A stretch of 64,000 nt of DNA, from NCBI GenBank assembly GCA_040954595.2, contig JBECUI020000031.1:62001-126000 (forward strand). Reading direction: 5' to 3'. The stretch is from Balanoglossus misakiensis. Lineage: Eukaryota > Animalia > Hemichordata. The translations under genes were made by a program, and so were the position numbers. Positions 12,083 through 64,000 of the stretch are shown in pieces. The notes below the pieces were generated by a model. That model was not told where the DNA came from, did no database searches, and saw only the letters and a program-made list of their open reading frames with translations. Each line of letters begins with the position of its first letter. Position 1 is the first letter of the stretch.

Positions 12083-12083
12083 G

Positions 12084-38297: not shown

Positions 38298-40947
38298 TTA
38301 GGGGCTTGGGAGGGCGGTGGGGGGCTGGCCTGGGAGGTCTTTGATGTGGGGGTGGTAGGCGGGACTGCCGTTCACCCGGCCTTCAATGACCCAATCGTTG
38401 ACGGACCAGCCTAGCTTGCCAGTTTCGGTCCCGGTGTACCAGCTTGGGGTTTTTAGTTGATCCAGGCTGACGGTGCTTCCAGAGGTGTTGGGGCTGGCTT
38501 GGGCATTGCCGTCAGGGTCTGTGATACTCTGATTCGCATAGCGGTAGCTCTTCGTTATGGTGCCAGCAAAGGATGCTCCGACCAAACCACCCACCTGGGT
38601 GGAGTCACTCTGACCCAAGACATTCCCTGTAGCATAGCTATTCGTTATGGTGCCTTGATTGAGGAATCCTATCAAACCACCCACACCAGAGGTCCCCGAG
38701 ACATCTCCAGTCGCATAGCTATCTGTTATGCGACCACCTGAACTATTCATATCCCCGACCAGACCACCCACGCCGCTACTTTGCCCCGTGACACCCCCAG
38801 TGTCCGTGACATCCCCAGCCCCAGTGCCCGTGACATCCCCAGTGGCATAGCTGCCTGTTATGCTAGCAGTGCTGTACCCGGCCAAGCCGCCCACAAAGTC
38901 TTTCATCCCCGAGACATCTCCAGTAGCATAGCTGCCTGTTATGGAGGCGTTATTATCTCCGACCAAACCACCCACCTGGAGGTCCCCCGAGACATCTCCA
39001 GTGGCATAGCTAGCCCTTATGCTGCCGCTGCTGTCTCCAACCAAACCACCCACGTTATTTCCCTGGCCCGAGACATCTCCGGTGGCATAGCTATCCCTTA
39101 TGATACCGCCGCTGTACCCAGCCAAGCCTCCCACGTTATTCCCCTGTCCCGAGACATCTCCGGTGGAATAGCTAGCCCTTATGCTGCCGCTGCTGGACCC
39201 AGCCAAGCCACCCACGTTGCTGCCACCCGTGACAGAACCCGTGGTATAGCTGCCTGTTATGGTTCCACCCGAGACTCCAGCCAAACCACCAACGCTTCTG
39301 CTACCCGTGACAGAACCCGTAGCATAGCTGCCTATAATCTCTCCCTCGTTATAACCCAACCAAACTACCTACGTTAGTATCCCCCGAGAAAGAGCCACCC
39401 AGCAGTTCCAAATCCTTAATTTGACCTCCAGCAAGCATAAAATTAAAGAAACCGACTCTATTAGCTAAAGGTGTCGTGACGGTCATTCCCTCGATACTGT
39501 GGTTTTTACCATCAAAACTCCCAGCATATCCACCGCTTAGGTAGTTGCCATCGTCGTCATAAGTTCCAGGCTAAGAGGGTCCAGTTTCCGTTGTCGGCAT
39601 CATCGTCGCTGTCGAAGGGGTCATCCCTGATCCCGTCGTTGTCAGCGTCAGCGAAGTTGAGGTCCATGCTTAGCTCGTAGTTCCAGTTATCGGGGTAGTT
39701 TTCACTATCCACTCCGATTTTGGCCAGTTCACTCAGGCGGTGGATGTACTGCTTGCCGTCGGCGGTGGGGATGAGGGGGGTGGTGTAACGGTATTCAGCG
39801 CTGCCGTCGCTGAGCAGGGCACGCAGGTAGTAGGGCCTTTCATTGCTGAGTCCGCTTAGTTCCACTGTCTGAGGGCCGAGGCTGCCTGTAAAGGAAACCT
39901 TCTTGACCATGATGCTTAAAGCCTGGTCGGTGAAGGCTTGGAGTTCTGTTTCTAGTCCTAGGGGAGCGTCAACTTCAACCATGATTTTTCCAGAACGGGG
40001 AACGGCATCGGTAATGACGATGCCATGGGGAGAATAAGGATTAGGAAGCGTTATCCAATCCGTGGAGGCCTCCGGGGAGACCTGATTCCCTTTGGCCCGC
40101 AGGCGGTAGGAGGTACCGTCGGTCAGGCCAGTCAGGCTTATCTCCTGGGATGTTGCTGCCGTCGGTTCGGAAACTGCTGTTGCGGTGGTAGAGCCAGCTT
40201 CGGTGAGAGCTTCTACGGTAATGCTAACGCCGGGTAGGGGCTTGAGGGTGATGATGAGGCTTTGGTAAGCCTGTCTTATGTTTTCAATGACAGCGGGGTC
40301 CAAGGCCCGTTCCGGACCGCCGAAGTCGCTCCAGGGGGCTTCAGTGTAGCCTGTTGTTTCTCCGATGGGGTAAAGGAGGGTGATCCCGGTCAAGGGAGTG
40401 GGAAAGGCCTCGGCGGGGCTGCCTGTAAAGCTGGGAGCCCTGGGGGCCAGGATTGTCAGCTTGTTGAGAGCCGTTCCGGCGAAGGCCAGATTGCCGATGG
40501 AGGTGATACCGTTACCTATCTGCACTTCGCTCAAGGAGGCAGATGAGCTGAAGGCCTCGTCTCCTATAGTCGTGACGCTGTTGGGAATATTTATGCTGGT
40601 GAGGGTGGAGTTTTTAAAGGCTGCCTCGGCTATGGCCGTAACGGGCTTGTTATAAATGAAAGAGGGTATGCTGAGGTCGGTGCTCTCTCGTCTTGCCAGA
40701 CCAGTTATAGTGATTTCCCTGCCTTCGTCCTGGTAGGTAAGTGCGTCGAAACTAGGGGGGGCGGTGAGGTTGCTGCAGGAAGTTATCAGGTAGAAAACGA
40801 AAAGGGAAAGACCAACTTTAGTGGCTAGGGTTTTTCTATGCTGTCTTACGCGGGGAAATAAGTGAGTGAGTGAGTGAGTGAGTGAGTGAGTGAGTGAGTG
40901 AGTGAGTGAGTGAGTGAGTGAGTGAGTGAGTTGGTAAATAAATTCAT
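38298..40947 (-). CDS. Phase-variable LRR/GLUG lipoprotein, copy 1 (OFF; extra indels near 39355 and 39570)
   Basis: AAGGAG-9nt-ATG, (CACT)17+TATT, signal peptide PRVRQHRKTLATKVGLSLFVFYLITSC, BspA LRR LTSINIPNSVTTIGDEAF, GLUG repeats (VGGLVG...SYATGDV). Confidence 0.85.
40861..40931 (-). repeat. SSR (CACT)17 plus one degenerate TATT unit, copy 1
   Basis: (AGTG)17AGT on the + strand, preceded by an extra AATA. Confidence 0.97.
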
Positions 40948-40979
40948 ATGCTGGATCTCCTTACAAATTTGATTGGTCT

Positions 40980-41008
40980 ACCCTATCGTAGTTATTCTTT
41001 TCTGTCAA
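40980..41008 (-). promoter_or_regulatory. Sigma70 promoter, TAGGGT allele (also 50296-50324, 56569-56597, 59831-59859)
   Basis: TTGACA-N17-TAGGGT, ending about 33 nt upstream of the ATG. Confidence 0.7.
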
Positions 41009-41279
41009 GTCTTTGCCATAGGTAAAAGACTTTTTGATTGAGCAGTGATATTGAATAATGACACTACGCTTCTAAAGCTTATTGCGTTTTAGAGGGAAAG
41101 CCAAGTTTTTTGGAATTATTTTCTGTTTTTGGGGAAGACTTCGGGGTTGGGGCGGCGATAGAGAGGTCCAGGGGGGGCTGGTTTGGGGAGATGTGCCTTA
41201 CAAGGCCCACACGGACTGCGGGGCTTGGAGGGCGGGACTACTGGTAGAGGCATCATCCCCGCATTTGCGGGGGTGATGG

Positions 41280-43876
41280 CTAGGGGGTTGGTAGGGGGGT
41301 GTCGGGCTGGCCGGGGAGGTTGGTGATGTGGGGGTGGTTTGGGGGGGTGCCGTTCACCCGGCCTTCAATGACCCAATCGTTGACGGACCAGCCTAGCTTG
41401 CCAGTTTCGGTCCCGGTGTACCAGCTTGGGGTTTTTAGTTGATCCAGGCTGACGGTGCTGCCAGAGGTGTTGGGGCTGGCTTGGGCATTGCCGTCAGGGT
41501 CTGTGATACTCTGATTCGCATAGCGGTAGCTGTTCGTTATGGTGCCAAAGGATAATCCGACCAAACCACCCACCTGGGCGCTGCCACTCTTCCCCAAGAC
41601 ATTCCCTGTAGCATAGCTATTCGTTATGGTGCCTTGATTGAATACTCCTATCAAGCCGCCCACCACAGGAGAGAACATCCCCGAGACATCTCCAGTCGCA
41701 TAGCTATCTGTTATGCCACCACCTGAACTAGTCATATCCCCGACCAGACCACCCACAGAAGAAGACTGCCCCGTGACATCCCCAGTGGCATAGCTGCCTG
41801 TTATGCTAGCAGAGCTGTACCCGGCCAAGCCGCCCACAAGGTCGTTCATCCCCGAGACATCTCCAGTAGCATAGCTGCCTGTTATGGAGGCGTTATTATC
41901 TCCGACCAAACCACCCACCTGGAGGTTCCCCGAGACATCTCCAGTGGCATAGCTAGCCCTTATGCTGCCGCTGCTGTCTCCAACCAAACCACCCACGTTA
42001 TTTCCCTGGCCCGAGACATCTCCGGTGGCATAGCTATCCCTTATGATACCGCCGCTGTACCCAGCCAAGCCTCCCACGTTATTCCCCTGTCCCGAGACAT
42101 CTCCGGTGGAATAGCTATCCCTTATGCTGCCGCCGCTGTACCCAGCCAAGCCACCCACGTTGCTGCTACCCGTGACAGAACCCGTGGTATAGCTGTCTGT
42201 TATGGTTCCACCCGATACTCCAGCCAAACCACCAACGCTTCTGCTACCCGTGACAGAACCCGTAGCATAGCTGCCTATAATCTCTCCCTCGTTATACCCA
42301 ACCAAACTACCTACGTTAGTATCCCCCGAGAAAGAGCCACCCAGCAGTGCCAGATCCTTAATTTGACCTCCAGCAAGCATAAAATTAAAGAAACCGACTC
42401 TATTAGCTAAAGGTGTCGTGACGGTCATTCCCTCGATACTGTGGTTTTTACCATCAAAGTTCCCAGCATATCCACCGCTTAGGTAGTTGCCATCGTCGTC
42501 ATAAGTTCCAGGGCTAAGAGGGGTCCAGTTTCCGTTGTCGGCATCATCGTCGCTGTCGAAGGGGTCATCCCTGATCCCGTCGTTGTTCGCGTCAGCGAAG
42601 TTGAGGTCCATGCTTAGCTCGTAGTTCCAGTTATCGGGGTAGTTTTCCATATCCACTCCGATTTTGGCCAGTTCACTTAGGCGGTGGATGTACTGCTTGC
42701 CATTGGCGGTGGGGATGAGGGGAGTGGAATAGCGGTATTCAGCGCTGCCATCGCTAAGCTTGGCATGCAGGTAGTAGGGCCTTTCATTGCTGACCCCGCT
42801 GAGTTCCACTGTCTGAGGGCCGAGGCTGCCTGTAAAGGAAACCTGCTTGACCATGATGCTTAAAGCCTGGTCGGTGAAGGCCTGGAGTTCTGATTCTAGT
42901 CCTAGGGGAGCGTCAACTTCAACCATGATTTTTCCAGAACGGGGAACGGCATCGGTAATGACGATGCCATGGGGAGAATAAGGATTAGGAAGCGTTATCC
43001 AATCCGTGGAGGCCTCCGGGGAGACCTGGCTCCCTTTGGCCCGCAGGTGGTAGGAGGTACCGTCGGTCAGGCCAGTCAGGCTTATCTCCTGGGATGTTGC
43101 TGCCGTTGGTTCGGAAACTGCTGTTGCGGTAGCTTCACTGCTAAAGTCAGCTTCGGTGTGAGCTTCTACGGTAATGCTAACGCCGGGTAGGGGCTTGAGG
43201 GTGATGATGAGGCTTTGGTAAGCCTGTCTTATATTTTCAATGACAGAGGGGTCCAAGGCCCGTTCCGGACCGCCGAAGTCGCTCCAGGGGGCTTCAGTGT
43301 AGCCTGTTGTTTCTCCGATGGGGTAAAGGAGGCTGATCCCGGTCAAGGGAGCGGGAAAGGCCTCGGCGGGGCTGCCTGTAAGGCTGGGGGCCCTGGGGGC
43401 CAGGATGCTTAGCTTGTTAAGGGCCGTTCCGGCGAAGGCCAGATTGCCGATGGAGGTGATACCGTTACCTATCTGCACTTCGCTCAAGGAGGCAGCTGAG
43501 CTGAAGGCCTCGTCTCCTATAGTCGTGACGCTGTTGGGAATATTTATGCTGGTAAGGATAGAGTTTTTAAAGGCTGCCTCGGCTATGGCCGTAACGGGCT
43601 TGTTATAAATGAAAGAGGGTATGCTGAGGTCGGTGCTGTCTTGTCTTGCCAGACCAGTTATAGTGATTTCCCTGCCTTCGTCCTGGTAGGTAAGTGCGTC
43701 GAAACTAGGGGGGGCAGTGGGGTTGCTGCAGGAAGTTATCAGGTAGAAAACGAAAAGGGAAAGACCAACTTTAGTGGCTAGGGTTTTTCTATGCTGTCTT
43801 ACGCGGGGAAGTGAGTGAGTGAGTGAGTGAGTGAGTGAGTGAGTGAGTGAGTGAGTGAGTTGATAGATAAATTCAT
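41280..43876 (-). CDS. Phase-variable LRR/GLUG lipoprotein, copy 2 (OFF, n=12; otherwise intact)
   Basis: ATG lies 389 nt upstream of the track ORF start (2 mod 3); frame open from signal peptide to stop. Confidence 0.9.
43810..43860 (-). repeat. SSR (CACT)12, copy 2
   Basis: 51 bp = (AGTG)12AGT. Confidence 0.97.
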
Positions 43877-43937: not shown

Positions 43938-44364
43938 GTCTTTTCCATAGGTAAAAGACTTTTTGATTGAGCAGTGATATTGAATAATGACACTACGCTT
44001 CTAAAGCTTATGACGTTTTAGAGAGAATGCTAAGTTTTTTGGAATTATTTTCTGTTTTTGGGGAAGACTTCGGGGTTGGGGTGGCGAGGGAGGGGTCCAG
44101 GGGGGGCAGGTTGGGGGAGATGTGCCTTCCAAGGCCCGCACGGACTGCGGGGCTTGGAGGGCTGGACTGCTGGTAGATCCATCATCCCCGCATTTGCGGG
44201 GGTGATGGCTAGGGGGTTGGCAGGGGGGTGTCGGGCTGGCCGGGGAAGTTGGTGATGTGGGGGTGGTAGGGGGAGATGTGCCTTCCAAGGCCCGCACGGA
44301 CTGCGGGGCTTGGAGGGCGGGATTGCTGGTAGAGCCATCATCCCCGCATTTGCGGGGGTGATGG

Positions 44365-46969
44365 CTAGGGGGTTGGCAGGGGGGTGTCGGGCTGGCCGGA
44401 GAGGTTGGTGATGTGGGGGTGGTAGGGGGGGGTGCCGTTCACCCGGCCTTCAATGACCCAATCGTTGACGGACCAGCCTAGCTTGCCAGTTTCGGTTCCA
44501 GTGTACCAGCTTGGGGTTTTTAGTTGATCCAGGCTGACGGTGCTGCCATAGGTGTTGGGTGTAGCGTGGGCATTGCCGTCAGGGTCTGTGATACTCTGAT
44601 TCGCATAGCGGTAGCTGCTCGTTATGGAGCCAAAGAATGCTCCGACCAAACCACCCACCTGGGGGGCCACCTGGGGGGAGCCTCTCTGCCCCAAGACATT
44701 CCCTGTAGCATAGCTATTCGTTATGGTGCCATGATCAAGGATTCCTATCAAACCACCCACCGCACTGGTCCCCGAGACATCTCCAGCCGCATAGCTGTCT
44801 GTTATGCCCCCCTCACTAATAGATCCAACCAAACCACCCACGCTGTCACTTTGCCCCGAGACATCTCCAGTGGCATAGCTGTTCGTTATAGTGGTATCAA
44901 ATACCTGTCCGGCCAAGCCGCCCACAAAATTCCTCTGACCCGAGACATCTCCAGTGGCATAGCTAGCCATTATACTACCTCTGCTGTCTCCAACCAAGCC
45001 GCCCACGCTACTTCCCTGACCCGTGACATCTCCAGTGGCATGGCTATCTGTTATGGAGGCTCTATTATCTCCAACCAAACCACCCACGTTATTCCCCTGT
45101 CCCGAGACATCTCCGGTGGAATAGCTATCCCTTATGCTGCCGCTGCTGTACCCAACCAAACCACCCACGGTACCCCCCTGCCCCGAGACATCTCCGGTGG
45201 AATAGCTATCCCTTATGCTGCCGCTGCTGGACCCAGCCACGCCACCCACGTTGCTGCTACCCGTGACAGAACCCGTGGTATAGCTGCCTGTTATGGTTCC
45301 ACCCGATACTCCAGCCAAACCACCAACGCTTCTGCTACCCGTGACAGAACCCGTAGCATAGCTGCCTATAATCTCTCCCTCGTTATACCCAACCAAACTA
45401 CCTACGTTAGTATCCCCCGAGAAAGAGCCACCCAGCAGTTCCAAATCCTTAATTTGACCTCCAGCAAGCATAAAATTAAAAAACCGACTCTATTAGCTAA
45501 GGTGTCGTGACGGTCATTCCCTCGATACTGTGGTTTTTACCATCAAAACTCCCAGCATATCCACCGCTTAGGTAGTTTCCATCGTCGTCATAAGTTCCAG
45601 GGCTAAGAGGGGTCCAGTTTCCGTTGTCGGCATCATCGTCGCTGTCGAAGGGGGTCATCCCTGATCCCGTCGTTGTCGGCGTCAGCGAAGTTGAGGTCCA
45701 TGCTTAGCTCGTAGTTCCAGTTATCGGGGTAGTTTTCACTATCCACTCCGATTTTGGCCAGTTCACTCAGGCGGTGGATGTACTGCTTGCCATTGGCGGC
45801 GGGAATAAGGGGGGTGGTGTAACGGTATTCAGCGCTGCCGTCGCTGAGCTGAGCACGCAGGTAGTAGGGCCTTTCATTGCTGACCCCGCTGAGTTCCACT
45901 GTCTGAGGGCCAAGGCTGCCTGTAAAGGAAACCTGCTTGACCATGATGCTTAAAGCCTGGTCGGTGAAGGCTTGGAGTTCTGATTCTAGTCCTAGGGGAG
46001 CGTCAACTTCAACCATGATTTTTCCAGAACGGGGAACGGCATCGGTAATGACGATGCCATGGGGAGAATAAGGATTAGGAAGCGTTATCCAATCCGTGAA
46101 GGCCTCCGGGGAGACCTGGCTCCCTTTGGCCCGCAGGCGGTAGGAGGTACCGTCGGTCAGGCCAGTCAGGCTTATCTCCTGGGATGTTGTTGCCGTCGGT
46201 TCGGAAACTGCTGTTGCGGTGGTAACGCCAGCTTCGGTGCGAGCTTCTACGGTAATGCTAACGCCGGGTAGGGGCTTGAGGGTAATGATGAGGCTTTGGT
46301 AAGCCTGTCTTATGTTTTCAATGACAGAGGGGTCCAAGGCCCGTTCCGGACCGCCGAAGCCGCTCCAGAGGCCTTCAGTGTAGCCTGTTGTTTCTCCGAT
46401 GGGGTAAAGGAGGGTGATCCCGGTCAAGGGGGCAGGAAAGGCCTCGGCGGGCTGCCTATAAAGCTGGGGGCCCTGGGGGCCAGGACGGTGAGTTTATTAA
46501 GGGCCGTTCCGGCGAAGGCCAGATTGCCGATGGAGGTGATACCGTTACCTACATGTACTTCGCTCAAGGAGGCAGCTGAGCTGAAGGCCTCGTCTCCTAT
46601 AGTCGTGACGCTGTTGGGAATATTTATGCTGGTAAGGGTGGAATTTTTAAAGGCTGCCTCGGCTATGGCCGTAACGGGCTTGTTATAAATGAAAGAGGGT
46701 ATGCTGAGGTCGGTGCTGTCTTGTCTTGCCAGACCAGTTATAGTGATTTCCCTGCCTTCGTCCTGGTAGGTAAGTGCGTCGAAACTAGGGGGGGCGGTGA
46801 GGTTGCTGCAGGGAAGTTATCAGGTAGAAAACGAAAAGGAAAAGACCAACTTTAGTGGCTAGGGTTTTTCTATGCTGTCTTACGCGGGGAAGTGAGTGAG
46901 TGAGTGAGTGAGTGAGTGAGTGAGTGAGTGAGTGAGTGAGTGAGTGAGTGAGTTGATAGATAAATTCAT
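44365..46969 (-). CDS. Phase-variable LRR/GLUG lipoprotein, copy 3 (OFF, n=15; homopolymer indels near 46811, 46449, 45650, 45499)
   Basis: Same architecture; indels found by comparison with sister copies. Confidence 0.82.
46891..46953 (-). repeat. SSR (CACT)15, copy 3
   Basis: 63 bp = (AGTG)15AGT. Confidence 0.97.
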
Positions 46970-47199
46970 ATGCTGGATCTCCTTACAAATTTGATTGGTC
47001 TATCCTATCGTAGGTATTCTTTTTTGTCAAGTCTTTTCTATAGGTAAAAGACTTTTTGATTGAGCAGTGATCTTGAATAAGGACACTACGCTTCTAAAGC
47101 TTATGACGTTTTAGAGAGAATGCTAAGTTTTTTGGAATTATTTTCTGTTTTGGGGAAGACTTCAGGGTTGGGGCGGCGATGGAGAGGTCCAGGGGGGGG

Positions 47200-47670
47200 G
47201 TGGTTTGGGGAGATGTGCCTTCCAAGGCCCGCACGGACTACGGGCCTTGGAGGGCGGGATTGCTGGTAGAGGCATCATCCCCGCATTTGCGGGGGTGATG
47301 GCTAGGGGGTTGGCAGGGGGGTGTCGGGCTGGCCGGGGAGGTTGGTGATGTGGGGGTGGTTGGGGGAGATGAGCCCTCCAAGGCCCGCACGGACTGCGGG
47401 GCTTGGAGGGCGGGATTGCTGGTAGAGGCATCATCCCCGCATTTGCGGGGGTGATGGCTAGGGGGTTGGTAGGGGGGTGTCGGGCTGGCCGGGGAGGTTG
47501 GTGATGGGGGGCTGGTTGGGGGAGATGTGCCTTCCAAGGCCCGCACGGACTGCGGGGCTTGGAGGGCGGGATTGCTGGTAGAGGCATCATCCCCGCATTT
47601 GCGGGGGTGATGGCTAGGGGGTTGGCAGGGGGGTGTCGGGCTGGCCGGGGAAGTTAGTGATGTGGGGGTG
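47200..47670. repeat. 156-bp double-hairpin tandem repeat (3 copies here; 1-3 after each of copies 2-9)
   Basis: GGCATCATCCCCGCATTTGCGGGGGTGATG recurs at 47271, 47427 and 47583 (period 156). Each unit also has the hairpin CCTyCAAGGCCCGCA-CGGAC-TGCGGGGCTTGGAGG and a copy of the gene's last ~55 nt. Confidence 0.95.
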
Positions 47671-50263
47671 GTTGGGGGGGTGCCGTTCACCCGACCTGTG
47701 ATGACCCAGTCCTCGGCGGTCCAGCCTAGATTGCTTGAGTCGGTGGAGGTGTACCAGCTTGGGGTTTTTAGTTGAACCAGGGTTACGGTGCTGCCGAAGG
47801 TGGTGGGTGTAGCGTGGGCATTGCCGTCAGGGTCCGTGATACTCTGATTCGCATAGCGGTAGCTGTTCGTTATGGTGCCAAAGGATACTCCGACCAAACC
47901 ACCCACGCTATTACTCTGTCCCGAGACATCCCCTGTAGCATAGCTATTCGTTAGGGTACCTCCATCGAGTACTCCTATCAAACCACCCCCAGCATCGTTA
48001 CACGTGACATCACCAGTAGCATAGCTGCCTGTTATGATAGCAGTGCTCTGTCCAACCAAACCACCCACAAGATTGAACCCCGAAACAGTACCAGTGGCAT
48101 AGCTGCCTGTTATGATAGCAGTGCTGTTCCCGGCCAAACCACCTACCTGATGACTCTGCCCCGAGACATCTCCAGTGGCATAGCTGCCTGTTATGCTACT
48201 AGTGCTGAGCCCAGCCAAACCACCCACAATGTCACTCATCCCCGAGACATCTCCAGTAGCATAGCTGCCTGTTATGCTAGCAGTGCTGTGCCCGGCCAAG
48301 CCGCCGACATACCCCTGACCCGTGACATCTCCAGTGGCATGGCTATCTGTTATGGAAGCACGGCTCTGTCCAACCAAACCACCCACGGTACCCCCCTGCC
48401 CCGAGACATCTCCGGTGGAATAGCTATCCCTTATGCTACCGCCGCTGTACCCAGCCAAACCACCAACGTTGCTGCTACCCGTGACAGAACCCGTGGTATA
48501 GCTGTCTGTTATGGTTCCATCCGATACTCCAGCCAAACCACCAACGTTGCTGCTACCCGTGACAGAACCCGTGGTATAGCTGCCTGTTATGGTTCCACCC
48601 GATACTCCAGCCAAACCACCAACGCTTCTGCTACCCGTGACAGAACCCGTAGAATAGCTGCCTATGATCTCTCCCTCGTTATACCCAACCAAACTACCTA
48701 CGTTAGAATTACCCGAGAAAGAGCCACCCAGCAGTTCCAGATCCTTAATTTGACCTCCAGCAAGCATCAAATTAAAAAAACCTACTCTATTAGCTAAAGG
48801 TGTCGTGACGGTCATTCCCTCGATACTGTGGTTTTTACCATCAAAGTTCCCACCATACCCACCGCTTAGGTAGTTTCCATCGTCGTCATAAGTTCCAGGG
48901 CTAAGAGGGGTCCAGTTTCCGTTGTCGGCATCATCGTCGCTGTCGAAGGGGTCATCTCTGATCCCGTCGTTGTCAGCGTCAGCGAAGTTGAGGTCCATGC
49001 TTAGCTCGTAGTTCCAGTTATCGGGGTAGTTTTCACTATCCACTCCGATTTTGGCCAGTTCACTTAGGCGGTGGATGTACTGCTTGCCGTCGGCGGTGGG
49101 GATGAGGGGGGTGGTGTAACGGTATTCAGCGCTGCCGTCGCTGAGCTGGGCACGCAGGTAGTAGGGCCTTTCATTGCTGACCCCGCTGAGTTCCACTGTC
49201 TGAGGGCCGGGGCTGCCTGTAAAGGAAACCTTCTTGACCATGATGCTTAAAGCCTGGTCGGTGAAGGCTTGGAGTTCTGATTCTAGTCCTAGGGGAGCGT
49301 CAACTTCAACCATGATTTTTCCAGAACGGGGAACGGCATCGGTAATGACGATGCCATGGGGAGAGTAAGGATTAGGAAGCGTTATCCAATCCGTGGAGGC
49401 CTCCGGGGAGACCTGGCTCCCTTTGGCCCGCAGGTGGTAGGAGGTACCATCGGTCAGGCCAGTCAGGCTTATCTCCTGGGATGTTGTTGCCGTCGGTTCG
49501 GAAACTGCTGTTGCGGTAGCTTCACTGCTAAAGTCAGCTTCGGTGTGAGCTTCTACGGTAATGCTAACGCCGGGTAGGGGCTTGAGGGTGATGATGAGGC
49601 TTTGGTAAGCCTGTCTTATGTTTTCAATGACAGAGGGGTCCAAGGCCCGTTCCGGACCGCCGAAGCCGCTCCAGGGGGCTTCAGTGTAGCCTGTTGTTTC
49701 TCCGATGGGGTAAAGGAGGGTGATCCCGGTCAAGGGGGCGGGAAAGGCCTCGGCGGGGCTGCCTATAAAGCTGGGGGCCATAGGGGCCAGGACGGTGAGT
49801 TTGTTAAGGGCCGTTCCGGCGAAGGCCAGATTGCCGATGGAGGTGATACCGTTACCTATCTGCACTTCGCTCAAGGAGGCAGCTGAGTTGAAGGCCTCGT
49901 CTCCTATAGTCGTGACGCTGTTGGGAATATTTATGCTGGTAAGGATAGAGTTTTTAAAGGCTGCCTCGGCTATGGCCGTAACGGGCTTGTTATAAATGAA
50001 AGAGGGTATGCTGAGGTCGGTGCTCTCTCGTCTTGCCAGACCAGTTATAGTGATTTCCCTGCCTTCGTCCTGGTAGGTAAGTGCGTCGAAACTAGGGGGG
50101 GCGGTGAGGTTGCTGCAGGAAGTTATCAGGTAGAAAACGAAAAGGAAAAGACCAACTTTAGTGGCTAGGGTTTTTCTATGCTGTCTTACGCGGGGAAGTG
50201 AGTGAGTGAGTGAGTGAGTGAGTGAGTGAGTGAGTGAGTGAGTGAGTTGATAAATAAATTCAT
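47614..50263 (-). CDS. Phase-variable LRR/GLUG lipoprotein, copy 4 (OFF, n=12; 1-nt deletion near 47672 gives read-through into downstream repeats)
   Basis: Same architecture; homologous TAG at 47614-47616. Confidence 0.87.
50197..50247 (-). repeat. SSR (CACT)12, copy 4
   Basis: 51 bp = (AGTG)12AGT. Confidence 0.97.
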
Positions 50264-50751
50264 ATGCTGGATCTCCTTACAAATTTGATTGGTCTACCCT
50301 ATCGTAGTTATTCTTGTTTGTCAAGACTTTTCCATAGGTAAAAGACTTTTTGATTGAGCAGTGATATTGAATAATGACACTACGCTTCTAAAGCTTATGA
50401 CGTTTTAGAGAGAATGCTAAGTTTTTTGGAATCATTTTCTGTTTTTTGGGAAGACTTCGGGGTTGGGGCGGCGATGGAGAGGTCCAGGGGGGGGTGGTTT
50501 GGGGAGATGAGCCTTCCAAGGCCCGCACGGACTGCGGGGCTTGGAGGGCGGGACTGCTGGTAGAGGCATCATCCCCGCATTTGCGGGGGTGATGGCTAGG
50601 GGGTTGGCAGGGGAGTGTCGGGCTGGCCGGGGAGGTTGGTGATGTGGGGCTGGTTTGGGGAGATGTGCCTTCCAAGGCCCGCACGGACTGCGGGGCTTGG
50701 AGGGCGGGATTGCTGGTAGAGGCATCATCCCCGCATTTGCGGGGGTGATGG

Positions 50752-53386: not shown

Positions 53387-53874
53387 ATGCTGGATCTCCT
53401 TACAAATTTGATTGGTCTATCCTATCGTAGGTATTCTTTTTTGTCAAGTCTTTTCTATAGGTAAAAGACTTTTTGATTGAGCAGTGATCTTGAATAAGGA
53501 CACTACGCTTCTAAAGCTTATGACGTTTTAGAGAGAATGCTAAGTTTTTTGGAATTATTTTCTGTTTTTGGGGAAGACTTCAGGGTTGGGGCGGCGATGG
53601 AGAGGTCCAGGGGGGGGTGGTTTGGGGAGATGTGCCTTCCAAGGCCCGCACGGACTGCGGGGCTTGGAGGGCGGGACTGCTGGTAGAGGCATCATCCCCG
53701 CATTTGCGGGGGTGATGGCTAGGGGGTTGGCAGGGGGGTGTCGGGCTGGCCGGGGAGGTTGGTGATGGGGGGCTGGTTTGGGGAGATGTGCCTTCCAAGG
53801 CCCGCACGGACTGCGGGGCTTGGAGGGCGGGATTGCTGGTAGAGGCATCATCCCCGCATTTGCGGGGGTGATGG

Positions 53875-56536
53875 CTAGGGGGTTGGCAGGGGGGTGTCGG
53901 GCTGGCCGGGGAAGTTGGTGATGTGGGGGTGGTAGGGGGGGGTGCCGTTCACCCGGCCTTCAATGACCCAATCGTTGACGGACCAGCCTAGCTTGCCAGT
54001 TTCGGTTCCAGTGTACCAGCTTGGGGTTTTTAGTTGATCCAGGCTGACGGTGCTGCCGAAGGTGGTGGGTGTAGCCTGGGCATTGCCGTCAGGGTCCGTG
54101 ATACTCTGATTCGCATAGCGGTAGCTGTTCGTTATGGTGCCAAAGGATACTCCGACCAAACCACCCACCTGGGTGCTGCCACTCTTCCCTAAGACATTCC
54201 CTGTAGCATAGCTATTCGTTAGGGTGCCTTCACTGAGTACTCCTATCAAACCACCCCCAGCATCGTTACACGTGACATCACCAGTAGCATAGCTGCCTGT
54301 TATGCCACGGCTCTGTCCAACCAAACCACCTACCTGATTACTCTGCCCCGAGACATCTCCAGTGGCATAGCTGCCTGTTATGATAGCAGTGCTGAGCCCA
54401 GCCAAGCCACCCACGGTACCCCCCTGCCCCGAGACATCTCCAGTGGCATAGCTGCCTGTTATGCTACTAGTGCTGAGCCCAGCCAAGCCACCCACAATGT
54501 CACTCATCCCCGAGACATCTCCAGTAGCATAGCTGCCTGTTATGCTAGCAGTGCTGTGCCCGGCCAAGCCGCCCACGTTAGCTCCCTGACCCGTGACATC
54601 TCCAGTGGCATGGCTATCTGTTATGGAAGCACGGCTCTGTCCAACCAAACCACCCACGGTACCCCCCTGCCCCGAGACATCTCCGGTGGCATAGCTATCC
54701 CTTATGATACCGCCGCTGTACCCAGCCAAGCCTCCCACGTTATTCCCCTGTCCCGAGACATCTCCGGTGGAATAGCTATCCCTTATGCTGCCGCTGCTGG
54801 ACCCAGCCAAACCACCCACGTTGCTGCTACCCGTGACAGAACCCGTGGTATAGCTGCCTGTTATGGTTCCACCCGATACTCCAGCCAAACCACCAACGCT
54901 TCTGCTACCCGTGACAGAAGCCGTAGCATAGCTGCCTATAATCTCTCCCTCGTTATACCCAACCAAACTACCTACGTTAGTATCCCCCGAGAAAGAGCCA
55001 CCCAGCAGTTCCAAATCCTTAATTTGACCTCCAGCAAGCATAAAATTAAAAAAACCTACTCTATTAGCTAAAGGTGTCGTGACGGTCATTCCCTCGATAC
55101 TGTGGTTTTTACCATCAAAGTTCCCAGCATATCCACCGCTTAGGTAGTTGCCATCGTCGTCATAAGTTCCAGGGCTAAGAGGGGTCCAGTTTCCGTTGTC
55201 GGCATCATCGTCGCTGTCGAAGGGGTCATCCCTGATCCCGTCGTTGTTCGCGTCAGCGAAGTTGAGGTCCATGCTTAGCTCGTAGTTCCAGTTATCGGGG
55301 TAGTTTTCCGTATCCACTCCGATTTTGGCCAGTTCACTCAGGCGGTGGATGTACTGCTTACCATTGGCGGCGGGAATAAGGGGAGTGGAATAGCGGTATT
55401 CAGCGCTGCCGTCGCTGAGCTGGGCACGCAGGTAGTAGGGCCTTTCATTGCTGAGTCCGCTTAGTTCCACTGTCTGAGGGCCGAGGCTGCCTGTAAAGGA
55501 AACCTTCTTGACCATGATGCTTAAAGCCTGGTCGGTGAAGGCTTGGAGTTCTGATTCTAGTCCTAGGGGAGCGTCAACTTCAACCATGATTTTTCCAGAA
55601 CGGGGAACGGCATCGGTAATGACGATGCCATGGGGAGAATAAGAATTAGGAAGCGTTATCCAATCCGTGGAGGCCTCCGGGGAGACCTGGCTCCCTTTGG
55701 CCCGCAGGTGGTAGGAGGTACCGTCGGTCAGGCCAGTCAAGCTTATCTCCTGGGATGTTGTTGCCGTCGGTTCGGAAACTGCTGTTGCGGTGGTAGAGCC
55801 AGCTTCGGTGAGAGCTTCAACGGTAATGCTAACGCCGGGTAGGGGCTTGAGGGTGATGATGAGGCTTTGGTAAGCCTGTCTTATGTTTTCAATGACAGAG
55901 GGGTCCAAGGCCCGTTCCGGACCGCCGAAGCCGCTCCAGAGGCCTTCAGTGTAGCCTGTTGTTTCTCCGATGGGGTAAAGGAGGGTGATCCCGGTCAAGG
56001 GGGCAGGAAAGGCCTCGGCGGGGCTGCCTATAAAGCTGGGGGCCATAGGAGCCAGGATGGTCAGCTTGTTGAGGGCCGTTCCGGCGAAGGCCAGATTGCC
56101 GATGGAGGTGATACCGTTACCTACATGTACTTCGCTCAAGGAGGCAGCTGAGCTGAAGGCCTCGTCTCCTATAGTCGTGACGCTGTTGGGAATATTTATG
56201 CTGGTAAGGGTGGAATTTTTAAAGGCTGCCTCGGCTATGGCCGTAACGGGCTTGTTATAAATGAAAGAGGGTATGCTGAGGTCGGTGCTGTCTTGTCTTG
56301 CCAGACCAGTTATAGTGATTTCCCTGCCTTCGTCCTGGTAGGTAAGTGCGTCGAAACTAGGGGGGGCGGTGAGGTTGCTGCAGGAAGTTATCAGGTAGAA
56401 AACGAAAAGGAAAAGACCAACTTTAGTGGCTAGGGTTTTTCTATGCTGTCTTACGCGGGGAAGTGAGTGAGTGAGTGAGTGAGTGAGTGAGTGAGTGAGT
56501 GAGTGAGTGAGTGAGTGAGTTGATAAATAAATTCAT
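53875..56536 (-). CDS. Phase-variable LRR/GLUG lipoprotein, copy 6 (OFF, n=14; otherwise intact)
   Basis: ATG lies 397 nt upstream of the track ORF start (1 mod 3). Confidence 0.9.
56462..56520 (-). repeat. SSR (CACT)14, copy 6
   Basis: 59 bp = (AGTG)14AGT. Confidence 0.97.
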
Positions 56537-56764
56537 ATGCTGGATCTCCTTACAAATTTGATTGGTCTACCCTATCGTAGTTATTCTTTTTTGTCAAGAC
56601 TTTTCCATAGGTAAAAGACTTTTTGATTGAGCAGTGATCTTGAATAAGGACACTACGCTTCTAAAGCTTATGACGTTTTAGAGGGAATGCCAAATTTTTT
56701 GGAATTATTTTCTGTTTTTGGGGAAGACCTCGGGGTTGGGGCGGCGATGGAGAGGTCCAGGGGG

Positions 56765-57235
56765 GGCAGGTTGGGGGAGATGTGCCTTCCAAGGCCCGCA
56801 CGGACTGCGGGGCTTGGAGGGCGGGACTACTGGTAGAGGCATCATCCCCGCATTTGCGGGGGTGATGGCTAGGGGGTTGGCAGGGGGGTGTCGGGCTGGC
56901 CGGGGAAGTTGGTGATGTGGGGCTGGTTGGGGGAGATGTGCCTTCCAAGGCCCGCACAGACTGCGGGGCTTGGAGGGCGGGACTGCTGGTAGAGGCATCA
57001 CCCCCGCATTTGCGGGGGTGATGGCTAGGGGGTTGGCAGGGGGGTGTCGGGCTGGCCGGGGAAGTTGGTGATGTGGGGCTGGTTGGGGGAGATGTGCCTT
57101 CCAAGGCCCGCACGGACTGCGGGCCTTGGAGGGCGGGACTACTGGTAGAGGCATCATCCCCGCATTTGCGGGGGTGATGGCTAGGGGGTTGGTAGGGGGG
57201 TGTCGGGCTGGCCGGGGAGGTTGGTGATGTGGGGG
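56765..57235. repeat. 156-bp double-hairpin tandem repeat, 3 copies
   Basis: Hairpin starts near 56840, 56996 and 57152. Confidence 0.93.
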
Positions 57236-59798
57236 TGGTTTGGGGGGGTGCCGTTCACCCGGCCTTCAATGACCCAATCGTTGACGGACCAGCCTAGCTT
57301 GCCAGTTTCGGTCCCGGTGTACCAGCTTGGGGTTTTTAGTTGATCCAGGCTGACGGTGCTGCCAGAGGTGTTGGGGCTGGCTTGGGCATTGCCGTCAGGG
57401 TCTGTGATACTCTGATTCGCATAGCGGTAGCTGTTCGTTATGGTGCCAAAGGATGCTCCGACCAAACCACCCACCTGGGCACTGCCACTCTTCCCCAAGA
57501 CATTCCCTGTAGCATAGCTATTCGTTATGGTGCCTTGATTGAATACTCCTATCAAGCCGCCCACCACAGGAGAGAACATCCCCGAGACATCTCCAGTCGC
57601 ATAGCTATCTGTTATGCCACCACCTGAACTAGTCATATCCCCGACCAGACCACCCAGGGTCCTTTGCCCCGTGACATCCCCAGTGGCATAGCTGCCTGTT
57701 ATGCTAGCAGAGCTGTACCCGGCCAAGCCGCCCACAAGGTCGTTCATCCCCGAGACATCTCCAGTAGCATAGCTGCCTGTTATGGAGGCGTTATTATCTC
57801 CGACCAAACCACCCACCAGGAAGTTCCCCGAGACATCTCCAGTGGCATAGCTAGCCCTTATGCTGCCGCTGCTGTCTCCAACCAAACCACCCACGTTATT
57901 TCCCTGGCCCGAGACATCTCCAGTGGCATAGCTATCCCTTATGCTACCGCCGCTGTACCCAGCCAAGCCGCCCACGTTATTTCCCTGGCCCGAGACATTT
58001 CCGGTGGAATAGCTATCCCTTATGCTGCCGCTGCTGGACCCAACCAAGCCACCCACGTTGCTGCTACCCGTGACAGAACCCGTGGTATAGCTGCCTGTTA
58101 TGGTTCCACCCGATACTCCAGCCAAACCACCAACGCTTCTGCTACCCGTGACAGAACCCGTAGCATAGCTGCCTATAATCTCTCCCTCGTTATACCCAAC
58201 CAAACTACCTACGTTAGAATTACCCGAGAAAGAGCCACCCAGCAGTGCCAGATCCTTAATTTGACCTCCAGCAAGCATAAAATTAAAAAAACCGACTCTA
58301 TTAGCTAAAGGTGTCGTGACGGTCATTCCCTCGATACTGTGGTTTTTACCATCAAAGTTCCCAGCATATCCACCACTTAGGTACTTTCCATCGTCGTCAT
58401 AAGTTCCAGGGCTAAGAGGGGTCCAGTTTCCGTTGTCGGCATCATCGTCGCTGTCGAAGGGGTCATCCCTGATCCCGTCGTTGTCGGCGTCAGCGAAGTT
58501 GAGGTCCATGCTTAGCTCGTAGTTCCAGTTATCGGGGTAGTTTTCCGTATCCACTCCGATTTTGGCCAGTTCACTTAGGCGGTGGATGTACTGCTTGCCA
58601 TTGGCGGTGGGGATGAGGGGGGTGGTGTAACGGTATTCAGCGCTGCCGTCGCTAAGCTTGGCATGCAGGTAGTAGAGCCTTTCATTGCTGACCCCGCTGA
58701 GTTCCACTGTCTGAGGGCCGGGGCTGCCTGTAAAGGAAACCTTCTTGACCATGATGCTTAAAGCCTGGTCGGTGAAGGCTTGGAGTTCTGATTCTAGTCC
58801 TAGGGGAGCGTCAACTTCAACCATGATTTTTCCAGAACGGGGAACGGCATCGGTAATGACGATGCCATGGGGAGAGTAAGGATTAGGAAGCGTTATCCAA
58901 TCCGTGAAGGCCTCCGGGGAGACCTGATTCCCTTTGGCCCGCAGGCGGTAGGAGGTACCGTCGGTCAGGCCAGTCAGGCTTATCTCCTGGGAAGTTGTTG
59001 CCGTCGGTTCGGAAACTGCTGTTGCGGTAGCTTCACTGCTAAAGTCAGCTTCGGTGTGAGCTTCAACGGTAATGCTAACGCCGGGTAGGGGCTTGAGGGT
59101 GATGATGAGGCTTTGGTAAGCCTGTCTTATGTTTTCAATGACAGAGGGGTCCAAGGCCCGTTCTAGACCGCCGAAGCCGCTCCAGAGGCCTTCAGTGTAG
59201 CCTGTTGTTTCTCCGATGGGGTAAAGGAAGGTGATCCCGGTCAAGGGGGCAGGAAAGGCCTCGGCGGGGCTGCCTATAAAGCTGGGGGCCATGGGGGCCA
59301 AGACGGTGAGTTTGTTAAGGGCCGTTCCGGCGAAGGCCAGATTGCCGATGGAGGTGATACCGTTACCTATCTGCACTTCGCTCAAGGAGGCAGATGAGCT
59401 GAAGGCCTCGTCTCCTATAGTCGTGACGCTGTTGGGAATATTTATGCTGGTGAGGGTGGAGTTTTTAAAGGCTGCCTCGGCTATGGCCGTAACGGGCTTG
59501 TTATAAATGAAAGAGGGTATGCTGAGGTCGGTGCTCTCTCGTCTTGCCAGACCAGTTATAGTGATTTCCCTGCCTTCGTCCTGGTAGGTAAGTGCGCCGA
59601 AACTAGGGGGGGCGGTGAGGTTGCTGCAGGAAGTTATCAGGTAGAAAACGAAAAGGAAAAGACCAACTTTGGCGGCTAGGGTTTTTCTATGTTGTCTTAC
59701 GCGGGGAAGTGAGTGAGTGAGTGAGTGAGTGAGTGAGTGAGTGAGTGAGTGAGTGAGTGAGTGAGTGAGTGAGTGAGTGAGTTGATAGATAAATTCAT
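57181..59798 (-). CDS. Phase-variable LRR/GLUG lipoprotein, copy 7 (OFF, n=18; otherwise intact)
   Basis: ATG lies 413 nt upstream of the track ORF start (2 mod 3). Confidence 0.9.
59708..59782 (-). repeat. SSR (CACT)18, copy 7
   Basis: 75 bp = (AGTG)18AGT. Confidence 0.97.
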
Positions 59799-60128
59799 AT
59801 GCTGGATCTCCTTACAAATTTGATTGGTCTACCCTATCGTAGTTATTCTTTTCTGTCAAGTCTTTGCCATAGGTAAAAGACTTTTTGATTGAGCAGTGAT
59901 CTTGAATAAGGACACTACGCTTCAAAGCTTATTGCGTTTTAGAGGGAAAGCCAAGTTTTTTGGAATTATTTTCTGTTTTTGGGGAAGACTTCGGGGTTGG
60001 GGCAGCGATGGAGAGGTCCAGGGGGGCTGGTTGGGGGAGATGAGCCCTCCAAGGCCCGCACGGACTGCGGGGCTTGGAGGGCGGGACTGCTGGTAGAGCC
60101 ATCATCCCCGCATTTGCGGGGGTGATGG

Positions 60129-62716
60129 CTAGGGGGTTGGCAGGGGGGTGTCGGGCTGGCCGGGGAAGTTGGTGATGTGGGGGTGGTAGGGGGGGGTGCC
60201 GTTCACCCGGCCTGTGATGACCCAGTCCTCGGCGGTCCAGCCTAGATTGCTTGAGTCGGTGGAGGTGTACCAGCTTGGGGTTTTTAGTTGATCCAGGCTG
60301 ACGGTGCTGCCATAGGTGTTGGGTGTAGCGTGGGCATTGCCGTCAGGGTCTGTGATACTCTGATTCGCATAGCGGTAGCTCTTCGTTATGGTGCCAAAGG
60401 ATACTCCGACCAAACCACCCACGTTATTGCTCTGTCCCGAGACATCCCCTGTAGCATAGCTATTCGTTAGGGTACCTCCATTGAGTACTCCTATCAAACC
60501 ACCCGCAGCATCGTTACACGTGACATCACCAGTAGCATAGCTGCCTGTTATGCCACGGCTCTGTCCAACCAAACCACCTACCTGATTACTCTGCCCCGAG
60601 ACATCTCCAGTGGCATAGCTGCCTGTTATGATAGCAGTGCTGTGCCCGGCCAAACCACCTACCTGAGAATCCTGCCCCGAGACATCTCCAGTGGCATAGC
60701 TGCCTGTTATGCTACTAGTGCTGAGCCCAGCCAAGCCACCCACAATGTCACTCATCCCCGAGACATCTCCAGTAGCATAGCTGCCTGTTATGCTAGCAGT
60801 GCTGTGCCCGGCCAAGCCGCCCACGTTAGTTCCCTGACCCGTGACATCTCCAGTGGCATGGCTATCTGTTATGGAAGCACGGCTCTGTCCAACCAAACCA
60901 CCCACGGTACCCCCCTGCCCCGAGACATCTCCGGTGGAATAGCTATCCCTTATGCTACCGCCGCTGTACCCAGCCAAACCACCAACGTTGCTGCTACCCG
61001 TGACAGAACCCGTGGTATAGCTGCCTGTTATGGTTCCACCCGATACTCCAGCCAAACCACCAACGCTTCTGCTACCCGTGACAGAACCCGTAGCATAGCT
61101 GCCTATAATCTCTCCCTCGTTATACCCAACCAAACTACCTACGTTAGAATTGCCCGAGAAAGAGCCACCCAGCAGTGCCAGATCCTTAATTTGACCTCCA
61201 GCAAGCATAAAATTAAAAAAACCGACTCTATTAGCTAAAGGTGTCGTGACGGTCATTCCCTCGATACTGTGGTTTTTACCATCAAAGTTCCCAGCATATC
61301 CACCGCTTAGGTAGTTGCCATCGTCGTCATAAGTTCCAGGGCTAAGAGGGGTCCAGTTTCCGTTGTCGGCATCATCGTCGCTGTCGAAGGGGTCATCCCT
61401 GATCCCGTCGTTGTCAGCGTCAGCGAAGTTGAGGTCCATGCTTAGCTCGTAGTTCCAGTTATCGGGGTAGTTTTCCGTATCCACTCCGATTTTGGCCAGT
61501 TCACTTAGGCGGTGGATGTACTGCTTGCCGTCGGCGGTGGGGATGAGGGGGGTGGTGTAACGGTATTCAGCGCTGCCGTCGCTAAGCTTGGCATGCAGGT
61601 AGTAGGGCCTTTCATTGCTGACCCCGCTGAGTTCCACTGTCTGAGGGCCGGGGCTGCCTGTAAAGGAAACCTGCTTGACCATGATGCTTAAAGCCTGGTC
61701 GGTGAAGGCTTGGAGTTCTGCTTCTAGTCCTAGGGGAGCGTCAACTTCAACCATGATTTTTCCAGAACGGGGAACGGCATCGGTAATGACGATGCCATGG
61801 GGAGAATAAGGATTAGGAAGCGTTATCCAATCCGTGGAGGCCTCCGGGGAGACCTGGCTCCCTTTGGCCCGCAGGTGGTAGGAGGTACCATCGGTCAGGC
61901 CAGTCAGGCTTATCTCCTGGGATGTTGTTGCCGTCGGTTCGGAAACTGCTGTTGCGGTAGCTTCACTGCTAAAGTCAGCTTCGGTGTGAGCTTCTACGGT
62001 AATGCTAACGCCGGGTAGGGGCTTGAGGGTGATGATGAGGCTTTGGTAAGCCTGTCTTATGTTTTCAATGACAGCGGGGTCCAAGGCCTGTTCTGGACCG
62101 CCGAAGCCGCTCCAGAGGCCTTCAGTGTAGCCTGTTGTTTCTCCGATGGGGTAAAGGAGGGTGATCCCGGTCAAGGGGGCGGGAAAGGCCTCGGGAGGAC
62201 TGCCTATAAAGCTGGGGGCCCTAGAGGCCAGGATGCTTAGCTTGTTGAGAGCCGTTCCGGCGAAGGCCAGATTGCCGATGGAGGTGATACCGTTACCTAT
62301 CTGCACTTCGCTCAAGGAGGCAGCTGAGCTGAAGGCCTCGTCTCCTATAGTCGTGACGCTGTTGGGAATATTTATGCTGGTAAGGGTGGAATTTTTAAAG
62401 GCTGCCTCGGCTATGGCCGTAACGGGCTTGTTATAAATGAAAGAGGGTATGCTGAGGTCGGTGCTGTCTTGTCTTGCCAGACCAGTTATAGTGATTTCCC
62501 TGCCTTCGTCCTGGTAGGTAAGTGCGTCGAAACTAGGGGGGGCGGTGAGGTTGCTGCAGGAAGTTATCAGGTAGAAAACGAAAAGGAAAAGACCAACTTT
62601 AGTGGCTAGGGTTTTTCTATGTTGTCTTACGCGGGGAAGTGAGTGAGTGAGTGAGTGAGTGAGTGAGTGAGTGAGTGAGTGAGTGAGTGAGTGAGTGAGT
62701 TGATAGATAAATTCAT
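60129..62716 (-). CDS. Phase-variable LRR/GLUG lipoprotein, copy 8 (OFF, n=15; otherwise intact)
   Basis: ATG lies 401 nt upstream of the track ORF start (2 mod 3). Confidence 0.9.
62638..62700 (-). repeat. SSR (CACT)15, copy 8
   Basis: 63 bp = (AGTG)15AGT. Confidence 0.97.
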
Positions 62717-63049
62717 ATGCTGGATCTCCTTACAAATTTGATTGGTCTATCCTATCGTAGGTATTCTTTTTTGTCAAGTCTTTTCTATAGGTAAAAGACT
62801 TTTTGATTGAGCAGTGATCTTGAATAAGGACACTACGCTTCTAAAGCTTATGACGTTTTAGAGAGAATGCTAAGTTTTTTGGAATTATTTTCTGTTTTTG
62901 GGGAAGACTTCAGGGTTGGGGCGGCGATGGAGAGGTCCAGGGGGGGGCTGGTTGGGGGAGATGAGCCCTCCAAGGCCCGCACGGACTGCGGGGCTTGGAG
63001 GGCGGGATTGCTGGTAGAGGCATCATTCCCGCATTTGCGGGGGTGATGG

Positions 63050-64000
63050 CTAGGGGGTTGGTAGGGGGGTGTCGGGCTGGCCGGGGAAGTTGGTGATGTG
63101 GGGGTGGTAGGCGGGGGTGCCGTTCACCCGGCCTTCAATGACCCAATCGTTGACGGACCAGCCTAGCTTGCCAATTTCGGTTCCAGTGTACCAGCTTGGG
63201 GTTTTTAGTTGATCCAGGCTGACGGTGCTGCCAGAGGTGTTGGGGCTGGCTTGGGCATTGCCGTCAGGGTCTGTGAAACTCTGATTCACATAGCGGTAGC
63301 TGTTGGTTATGGTGCCTGTATCAATTAGTCCTATCAAACCACCCAGGTCGGCCCCTTGCCCCGAGACATTCCCAGTGGCATAGCTGTTTGTTATGCTACC
63401 GAAGCTGTGATTACCGACCAAACCACCCACGATGTTCCCTTGCCCCGAGAGATCCCCAGTGGCATAGCTGTTCTCTATGCTGCCTGAGTTGAATCCCGCC
63501 AAGCCGCCCAAATTGTCGCTGACCCCCGAAACAGTACCGGTGGCATAGCTGTCTGTTATGGAAGAAGTGTTGGTTCCAGCCAAACCACCCACAGTACCGT
63601 CCCCCGAGACATCTCCAGTGGCATAGTTGCCTGTCATGGAGGCTCTATTATTTCCAACCAAACCACCTACGTCCCTACCCTGACCTGAGACATTCCCGGT
63701 GGCATAGCTGCCTGTTATGGTGAATTGGCTGTGTCCAACCAAACCACCTACACTAGCGTCCCCCGAAACAGTACCAGTGGCATAGCTGTCTGTTATGGGA
63801 GCAAAGTTCCTTCCGACCAAACCACCTACAATGTGACTCTGCCCTGAGACATTCCCGGTGGCATAGCTGCTCGTTATGCTTCCCATTATCCAGCTGAATC
63901 CAACCAAACCACCCACGTAGTCCCCCTGACCCGAGACATCTCCAGTGGTATAGCTAGCCTTTATACTGCCGTCGTTGTACCCAGCCAAGCCACCCACATA
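63050..64000 (-). CDS. GLUG lipoprotein, copy 9, 3' part only
   Basis: GLUG repeats and the conserved C-terminus DQLKTPSWY...PGQPDTPLPTP; the 5' end lies outside the window. Confidence 0.9.
   Translation of the reverse strand, partial: YVGGLAGYNDGSIKASYTTGDVSGQGDYVGGLVGFSWIMGSITSSYATGNVSGQSHIVGGLVGRNFAPITDSYATGTVSGDASVGGLVGHSQFTITGSYATGNVSGQGRDVGGLVGNNRASMTGNYATGDVSGDGTVGGLAGTNTSSITDSYATGTVSGVSDNLGGLAGFNSGSIENSYATGDLSGQGNIVGGLVGNHSFGSITNSYATGNVSGQGADLGGLIGLIDTGTITNSYRYVNQSFTDPDGNAQASPNTSGSTVSLDQLKTPSWYTGTEIGKLGWSVNDWVIEGRVNGTPAYHPHITNFPGQPDTPLPTP

Follow-up and report, generated by a model that had tools for sequence, protein, structure and literature searches.

A tandem array of mosaic genes for predicted GLUG-repeat lipoproteins with coding (CACT)n tracts in an uncultured spirochaete

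The stretch of DNA analysed here, referred to as the window, comprises 64,000 nucleotides (nt) of contig JBECUI020000031.1 (positions 62,001 to 126,000, forward strand) in an assembly deposited under the hemichordate Balanoglossus misakiensis (GCA_040954595.2). From position 38298 to its end, the window harbors nine tandem, co-oriented minus-strand gene units of 2.9-3.3 kb whose products are predicted to be surface lipoproteins of the leucine-rich repeat (LRR)/GLUG beta-helix type. The copies are mosaics of one another, differ in repeat number, depend for their reading frame on a (CACT)n tract, and show tighter constraint in the scaffold of the helix than in its loops. The explanation that we favor, with good though incomplete confidence, is a tandem lipoprotein family that becomes mosaic over its whole length by ordinary gene conversion and unequal crossover and is turned on and off by slippage of the (CACT)n tract.

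Copies are numbered from the leftmost (c1) to c9, which is truncated by the window end at 64000; the array extends past this point and the copy number is at least nine. Every complete unit contains, in order, a TTGACA hexamer, an AAGGAG sequence, an ATG, the (CACT)n tract and a leader of basic and hydrophobic character with LITSC at its end, which we take to be a lipobox, followed by LRR_5, a middle region, an acidic segment, the GLUG repeats and a proline-rich tail. TTGACA, AAGGAG, ATG and LITSC are present in 8/8 complete copies. Glug and LRR_5 are the only domain matches in the copies scanned, with Pfam GLUG (PF07581) far above the cut-off at 119-139 bits. The GLUG repeats are 78-81 bp long; there are eight full repeats in c1, c2, c3, c5, c7 and c8, nine in c4 and c6, and at least eight in c9, whose repeats are the most divergent, at 75-86% nt identity to the most similar repeat elsewhere. 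The beta-solenoid proposed in the original prediction is recovered by AlphaFold, which for c7 and a 40-row alignment gives a confident GLUG beta-helix with a mean predicted local distance difference test score (pLDDT) of 83.7, mostly above 90 over the repeats, and a predicted TM-score of 0.85. The best Foldseek match of the GLUG model is PDB 3N6Z (E = 1e-5, with a query TM-score, TMq, of only 0.32), followed by 7UVL and 6XJA; no PDB sequence match was found for the array protein. An FN3-like character had also been proposed for the N-terminal part, or stalk; Pfam gives no more than a hint of it below threshold (PF16656, E = 0.033), and the model built there from one sequence is unusable (pLDDT 40.7).

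The best EF-G matches among those listed belong to Spirochaetia, at 79% at best, and the UvrD proteins of the two nearest genomes compared share 59-62% identity with that of the window. The array therefore belongs to a distant, uncultured spirochaete.

Sharing of sequence blocks between non-adjacent copies is confirmed. c2 and c7 share MNDLV...DMTSSGGG...MFSPVV repeats (100% nt identity for repeats 5 and 7); c4, c6 and c8 share QSRAS...MSDIV...CNDA; and c4 and c8 have a TSTDSSN tail in common, with 13 diagnostic sites in alignment columns 2509-2558. The tail of c6 differs from that of c4 and c8 and is identical to that of c5 (distance 0.000), and the extra early repeat of c4 is a duplication, 97% identical to the neighbouring repeat. 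An early helix turn has been gained in c4 and lost in c8. The earlier picture of variable GLUG repeats on a nearly invariant N-terminus stands in its first half: the GLUG region is the more divergent (mean 14.0%, tail 7.3%) and its repeats vary. The N-terminal part, however, diverges by a mean of 3.65% (range 2.4-5.1%; 136/1495 sites segregating) and is also mosaic. Its 1.5 kb contain 72 informative sites, of which 1555/2556 pairs are incompatible, and the minimum number of recombination events (Rm) is at least 25. A permutation test of the pairwise homoplasy index (PHI) type gives p = 5e-5 for this part, the floor of 20000 permutations, and p = 0.003-0.012 for the tail. Incompatibility climbs with the distance between sites: it is 0.07 for sites up to 10 bp apart, 0.41 at 10-30 bp and ~0.7 beyond 500 bp, so that exchange tracts are short and found everywhere, spacers included; 43 incompatible pairs lie within 30 bp. 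Such distance dependence would be predicted from recombination and not from recurrent mutation. The N-terminal signal persists without the most frameshifted copies, c1 and c3 (759/1378 pairs incompatible, p = 2e-4).

No single tree fits all segments of the gene. In five of seven segments the whole-gene tree is rejected by approximately unbiased (AU) tests (p from 5e-5 to 0.033); G1 is not rejected (p = 0.084) and the topology of G2 is the same as that of the whole gene. The AU trees come from the same data, which overstates their significance, a flaw that the permutation test does not have. The relationships among GLUG regions do not track the N-terminus of their own gene (Mantel r = 0.07, p = 0.38). 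The clearest mosaic is c6, which a copying model paints over 966 bp with 9 mismatches: 205 bp c5-like (3 mismatches), 248 bp c8-like (1), a swapped 30 bp loop common to c3, c4 and c8 (0), 175 bp c8-like (4) and 308 bp c5-like (1), with main switches at ~54670-54689 and 54233-54236. The permutation test, the AU tests and the c6 patchwork together support the gene conversion or unequal crossover among copies that had been proposed. In two of four paralogue pairs from other spirochaete genomes, the stalk is likewise near-identical and differences are concentrated in the GLUG loops.

Constraint on the protein is uneven. Ratios of nonsynonymous to synonymous polymorphism (pN/pS), in which each allele difference was counted once along minimum spanning trees, are 0.16-0.18 for GGLxG, 0.29-0.30 for the IxxSYATGxVxG block, 0.31 for the stalk and 0.92-1.04 for the loops. 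Loop values are distinct from those of the scaffold (Fisher p below 1e-8) and not from neutrality (p = 0.64-0.81), which suggests that the loops tolerate amino-acid change while the scaffold is constrained. Variability peaks at the positions on either side of the VGGLxG turn (entropy 2.4-3.1 bits), which may form one face of the helix. Shuffling may create new surfaces for binding or antigenic variation, as the original prediction proposed. A possible but less probable reading is that a redundant array, silent for the most part, undergoes neutral concerted evolution, with loops that vary since they are unconstrained; it has the same mechanism as the favored explanation and differs only in the 'why'. 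It accommodates a loop pN/pS indistinguishable from 1, the five indels of c3 and the fact that none of the eight complete copies is in frame, but not the purifying selection on scaffold and stalk (0.16-0.31) or the tract, lipobox and start signals kept in every complete copy, which imply at least intermittent expression.

The original prediction placed this shuffling on top of a simple sequence repeat (SSR) switch, and that layer is present: a coding (CACT)n of 12-18 units lies between ATG and lipobox in 8/8 complete copies, and only tracts of 13, 16 or 19 units bring the leader into frame. The tract likely switches each complete copy on and off by slippage. Tract lengths (Table 1) and frame state are those of the assembly; the public contigs of run X1 that were placed on the array miss the SSR and adjoining bases. 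(CACT)8 was found in 0/401 Spirochaetia genomes searched, many of which are incomplete metagenome-assembled genomes, and no comparable coding repeat tract was seen in 25 fetched stretches of related genomes.

Several observations weigh against the favored explanation. In the assembly, 0/8 tracts are in frame (p = 0.04), with offsets of 1 or 2 mod 3, and 7/8 have 12, 15 or 18 units and so share a single frame class (p = 0.008 under a uniform distribution). Simple slippage leaves this shared class unaccounted for; slippage bias, systematic base error and frameshift read-through are candidate causes. Positive selection on the loops was not detected (pN/pS ~0.9-1.0), and the data come from one strain, in which shuffling may be ongoing. 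The other two paralogue pairs from outside lack the GLUG-focused pattern, one having N-terminal differences and one being divergent throughout. The assembly carries indel errors, both at nine array sites, mostly 1 bp within base runs, and in unique DNA outside the array, where a class I tRNA synthetase gene, presumably LeuRS-like, is split by an indel. X1 may be the source sample of the assembly. No listed X1 contig spans a main mosaic junction on c6, and the exact contigs leave c6 uncovered at 54187-54258 and 54691-54726, although holes of this kind prove nothing.

It is improbable that most of the mosaicism consists of chimeras made in assembly or polishing, from error-prone long reads or mixed strains. 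Consistent with such a history are the homopolymer indels, which affect an essential gene as well as the array, the low depth (~8) and the junctions without a spanning contig; 25 or more exchanges within 1.5 kb, with linkage that depends on distance, speak against it. Polishing tends to homogenise repeat copies, and each copy here has kept private variants. Over 3856 bp of the flank the X1 contigs show 0 differences (depth 8.3), so that X1 contains the same strain, and their depth of 63-87 in the array equals ~8-10 copies. Nine of 12 X1 inserts were looked up: five are loops marking c2, c3, c4, c8 and c4/c6, at single- to double-copy depth (8.1-14.8), and four are motifs absent from the array of the window, which indicates that further paralogues or donors exist. 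On c6, 11/16 ends of eight listed contigs (of 58 placed) match branch points predicted from the window, where the chance of a match is 7% for each end. The X1 contigs support the copy number and the copy-specific loops; with the junctions unspanned and X1 perhaps the source sample, chimerism is unlikely but conceivable. The indels of c1 are absent from the X1 contigs, which is no proof of error because alleles common to two or three copies are missing there too. A single-copy X1 contig of 1080 nt (depth 8.25), ~85% like the stalk and placed on 40197-40795, reveals a more remote paralogue at another site of the genome.

In the favored explanation, RecA-type exchange in short tracts would homogenise stalk, spacer and scaffold, while mis-registered pairing of the 78-81-bp repeats would add or remove whole beta-helix turns (c4, c6, c8) and shift loops between turns. 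Purifying selection would hold the scaffold, with loop changes tolerated or favored, and the family would maintain a repertoire of recombined helix surfaces of which few are expressed at any one time. This repertoire probably serves host-surface binding or the evasion of host defence or phage. The array would extend phase and antigenic variation of the opa/vlhA style to a deep uncultured spirochaete lineage and to the GLUG beta-helix, whose repetitive fold lets recombination insert, remove or exchange entire turns. It points to what may be the most varied surface protein of the organism, and hence a likely host or phage interface. The strategy is already known; the lineage and fold are new, and the mechanism would not surprise a specialist. 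In a more elaborate variant, which has little probability, a spirochaete associated with an invertebrate or other host would wear a two-layer coat of exchanged turns and loops, the 7/8 frame class would reflect regulated low expression through ribosomal frameshifting, and 156-bp hairpin units found in the array would possibly promote recombination.

Opa products are beta-barrels, and the vlhA repeat is located upstream of the gene. By its sequence features, the array appears to work like Neisseria opa and Mycoplasma vlhA. As in SSR phase-variable multigene families of this kind, it has multiple full-length paralogues, each with its own predicted expression signals (8/8), a short repeat whose unit number differs among copies and sets the frame, and variable loops reassorted among paralogues by recombination. 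The opa family is reported to comprise several paralogues of full length whose frame is set by a short coding repeat close to the start, to have its variable loops reassorted through recombination and gene conversion, and to show fewer in-frame genes than expected by chance, with a mean of 1.7 vs 3.4 (10.64898/2026.02.02.703239). The array is alike in its full-length paralogues, frame-setting repeat, in-frame deficit and loop reassortment. It differs in its tetranucleotide CACT (CTCTT in opa), in tandem rather than dispersed genes, and in a predicted lipoprotein product with a GLUG beta-helix of variable turn number; no homology to opa is claimed. The vlhA genes of M. gallisepticum are described as tandem full-length lipoprotein genes with their own open reading frame (ORF) and promoter under the control of a variable short repeat (PMC4534519). 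The array shares, on that description, the tandem lipoprotein genes and short-repeat control; its tract lies inside the leader and acts on the frame, unlike the trinucleotide repeat of vlhA, and fold and phylum are different.

Other known systems fit less well. Borrelia vlsE and Treponema tprK are spirochaete surface antigens that owe their diversity to short conversion tracts between conserved and variable blocks (PMC4534519). Antigen type and short tracts are similar in the array, but within the window there is neither a single expression site nor any silent partial cassette, and a cassette system was rejected as all eight complete copies are full-length with their own start signals and switch. 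The S. aureus lpl cluster is reported to consist of tandem lipoprotein paralogues shuffled by homologous recombination, with incongruent 5' and 3' gene halves (PMC2568036). The array resembles lpl in tandem paralogues and homologous shuffling; exchange in the array reaches beyond one central block, and a conserved unit of 3' end, spacer and next 5' end is absent. Such a unit was rejected: none of 12 Mantel comparisons with the gene downstream was significant (p = 0.37 or higher, r -0.39 to 0.09), and tail versus spacer (r = 0.13, p = 0.24) shows no co-inheritance of the lpl type. A diversity-generating retroelement was rejected: the scaffold ATA codon is kept in 69/74 repeats and is never ATT or ATC, loop length varies, and no reverse transcriptase is among the 38 window ORFs scanned. 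Of the loop differences, 67% involve A, above the ~50% expected from composition, and transitions dominate. An M26 IgA1 protease was rejected as no peptidase domain was detected in the copies scanned, only Glug and LRR_5 matches; PF07581 and Foldseek relate the helix to that of Bacteroides BACOVA_03286 (PDB 3N6Z) and of the pneumococcal IgA1 protease, from which the array protein differs by lacking a detected peptidase domain.

The original prediction located the crossovers specifically at SYATGDVSG, and this did not hold. From 18 high-confidence switches, 13 were kept, not fully independent of one another, after dropping one 108 bp wide, two from the c5 C-run indel and two in the tail. Only 3/13 lie in SYATGDVSG, with ~4 expected from length alone; five lie in GGLxG, four in or next to loop 1 and one in loop 2. 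Switches can be placed only between variable sites and so always appear to sit in conserved codons. Exchange is equally dense in the spacers and in the stalk, which has no SYATGDVSG. A programmed, motif-directed system (site-specific crossover at SYATGDVSG, cassette-to-expression-site transfer, or hairpin 156-bp units as nicking sites) is very doubtful, since the highly conserved scaffold codons, the double hairpins confined within the window to the array and the further donors implied by 4/9 read-derived motifs are outweighed by this distribution of switches, by dense exchange in a stalk without the motif, by full-length, co-oriented copies with their own start signals, and by the absence of recombinase, transposase and reverse transcriptase families among the 38 ORFs scanned in the window. 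Site-specific shuffling of the shufflon or vsp type was rejected on the same switch count, co-orientation and lack of a recombinase in those ORFs.

GLUG matches occur in 13/61 related genomes, and several related genomes have expanded, partly tandem GLUG lipoprotein families, in one case with six neighbouring genes. Tandem clusters of up to six neighbours, with no coding repeat tract visible, were observed in other spirochaete genomes at L117 (G043:C10), L109-L111 (G049) and L089 (G003); the 2.3 Mb of G049 contain ~20 GLUG genes. A collection of 15 billion sequences contained none of 10 window proteins, and homologue searches (~8000 candidates scored each) returned only generic GLUG or LRR proteins and no full-length homologue. 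A metagenome scan with the N-terminal half found nothing, a GLUG-like ORF was present in 0/83 loci around relatives of the neighbouring LarA-like gene, and no literature was found that joins GLUG with spirochaetes or symbionts.

Table 1. Coordinates of array copies and associated features in the window.
Feature	Position	Strand	Details
c1	38298..40947	-	From ATG to stop; SSR 40861-40931, 17 units plus one degenerate (18-equivalent); GLUG 38538-39290; array-end copy; frameshifts near 39572 and 39354; divergent 3' end
c2	41280..43876	-	SSR 43810-43860, 12 units; GLUG 41520-42233; frame open downstream of SSR
c3	44365..46969	-	SSR 46891-46953, 15 units; GLUG 44605-45324; five 1-bp indels in base runs, either assembly errors or a pseudogene
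c4	47614..50263	-	SSR 50197-50247, 12 units; GLUG 47853-48620, early repeat duplicated; 1-bp indel in C run near 47680
c5	50752..53386	-	SSR 53296-53370, 18 units; GLUG 50991-51719; 1-bp indel in C run near 50805
c6	53875..56536	-	SSR 56462-56520, 14 units; GLUG 54115-54894
c7	57181..59798	-	SSR 59708-59782, 18 units; LRR_5; GLUG 57421-58131; Cys codon of lipobox-like LITSC at 59628; copy used for modelling
c8	60129..62716	-	SSR 62638-62700, 15 units; GLUG 60369-61061; without one early repeat
c9	63050..64000	-	3' part only
Example spacer	59799..60128	-	Hairpins, TTGACA hexamer, AAGGAG Shine-Dalgarno-like site 9 nt before ATG
156-bp unit	56763..57246		3.1 copies
156-bp unit	44109-44429		2.1 copies
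156-bp unit	47196-47678		3.1 copies
156-bp unit	50491-50809		2.1 copies
156-bp unit	53611-53933		2.1 copies

A near-identical spacer, itself mosaic, lies upstream of all eight complete copies. A consensus promoter scan of one spacer (59799..60128) gave no site over threshold. The hexamer 17 nt after TTGACA, read by eye, is TAGGAT in c2, c3, c5 and c8 and TAGGGT in c1, c4, c6 and c7, and promoter strength may be shuffled among copies too. The 156-bp unit consists of the last codons and stop of the gene and two strong GC-rich hairpins (fold z = -7.8) and is present one to three times per gene, after the stop, being single after c2, c8 and c9. The double hairpins presumably resemble repetitive extragenic palindromic (REP) elements; no real Rfam match was found for them. 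GC content is 50-59% in the array (38000-64000) versus ~39-50% in the flank. In the flank, apparent frameshifts at ~543, 9494, 23570 and 24100, in genes for a class I tRNA synthetase, a sulfatase, an FtsX-type permease and a LolA-like protein, point to indel errors of the assembly; that of the LolA-like gene sits near the gene start (~23967-24030). Parts of two genes at 2530-2811 and 3674-4143 are duplicated ~9 kb away at 12081-12832, with 91-100% identity, where they are fused into one fragmented copy.

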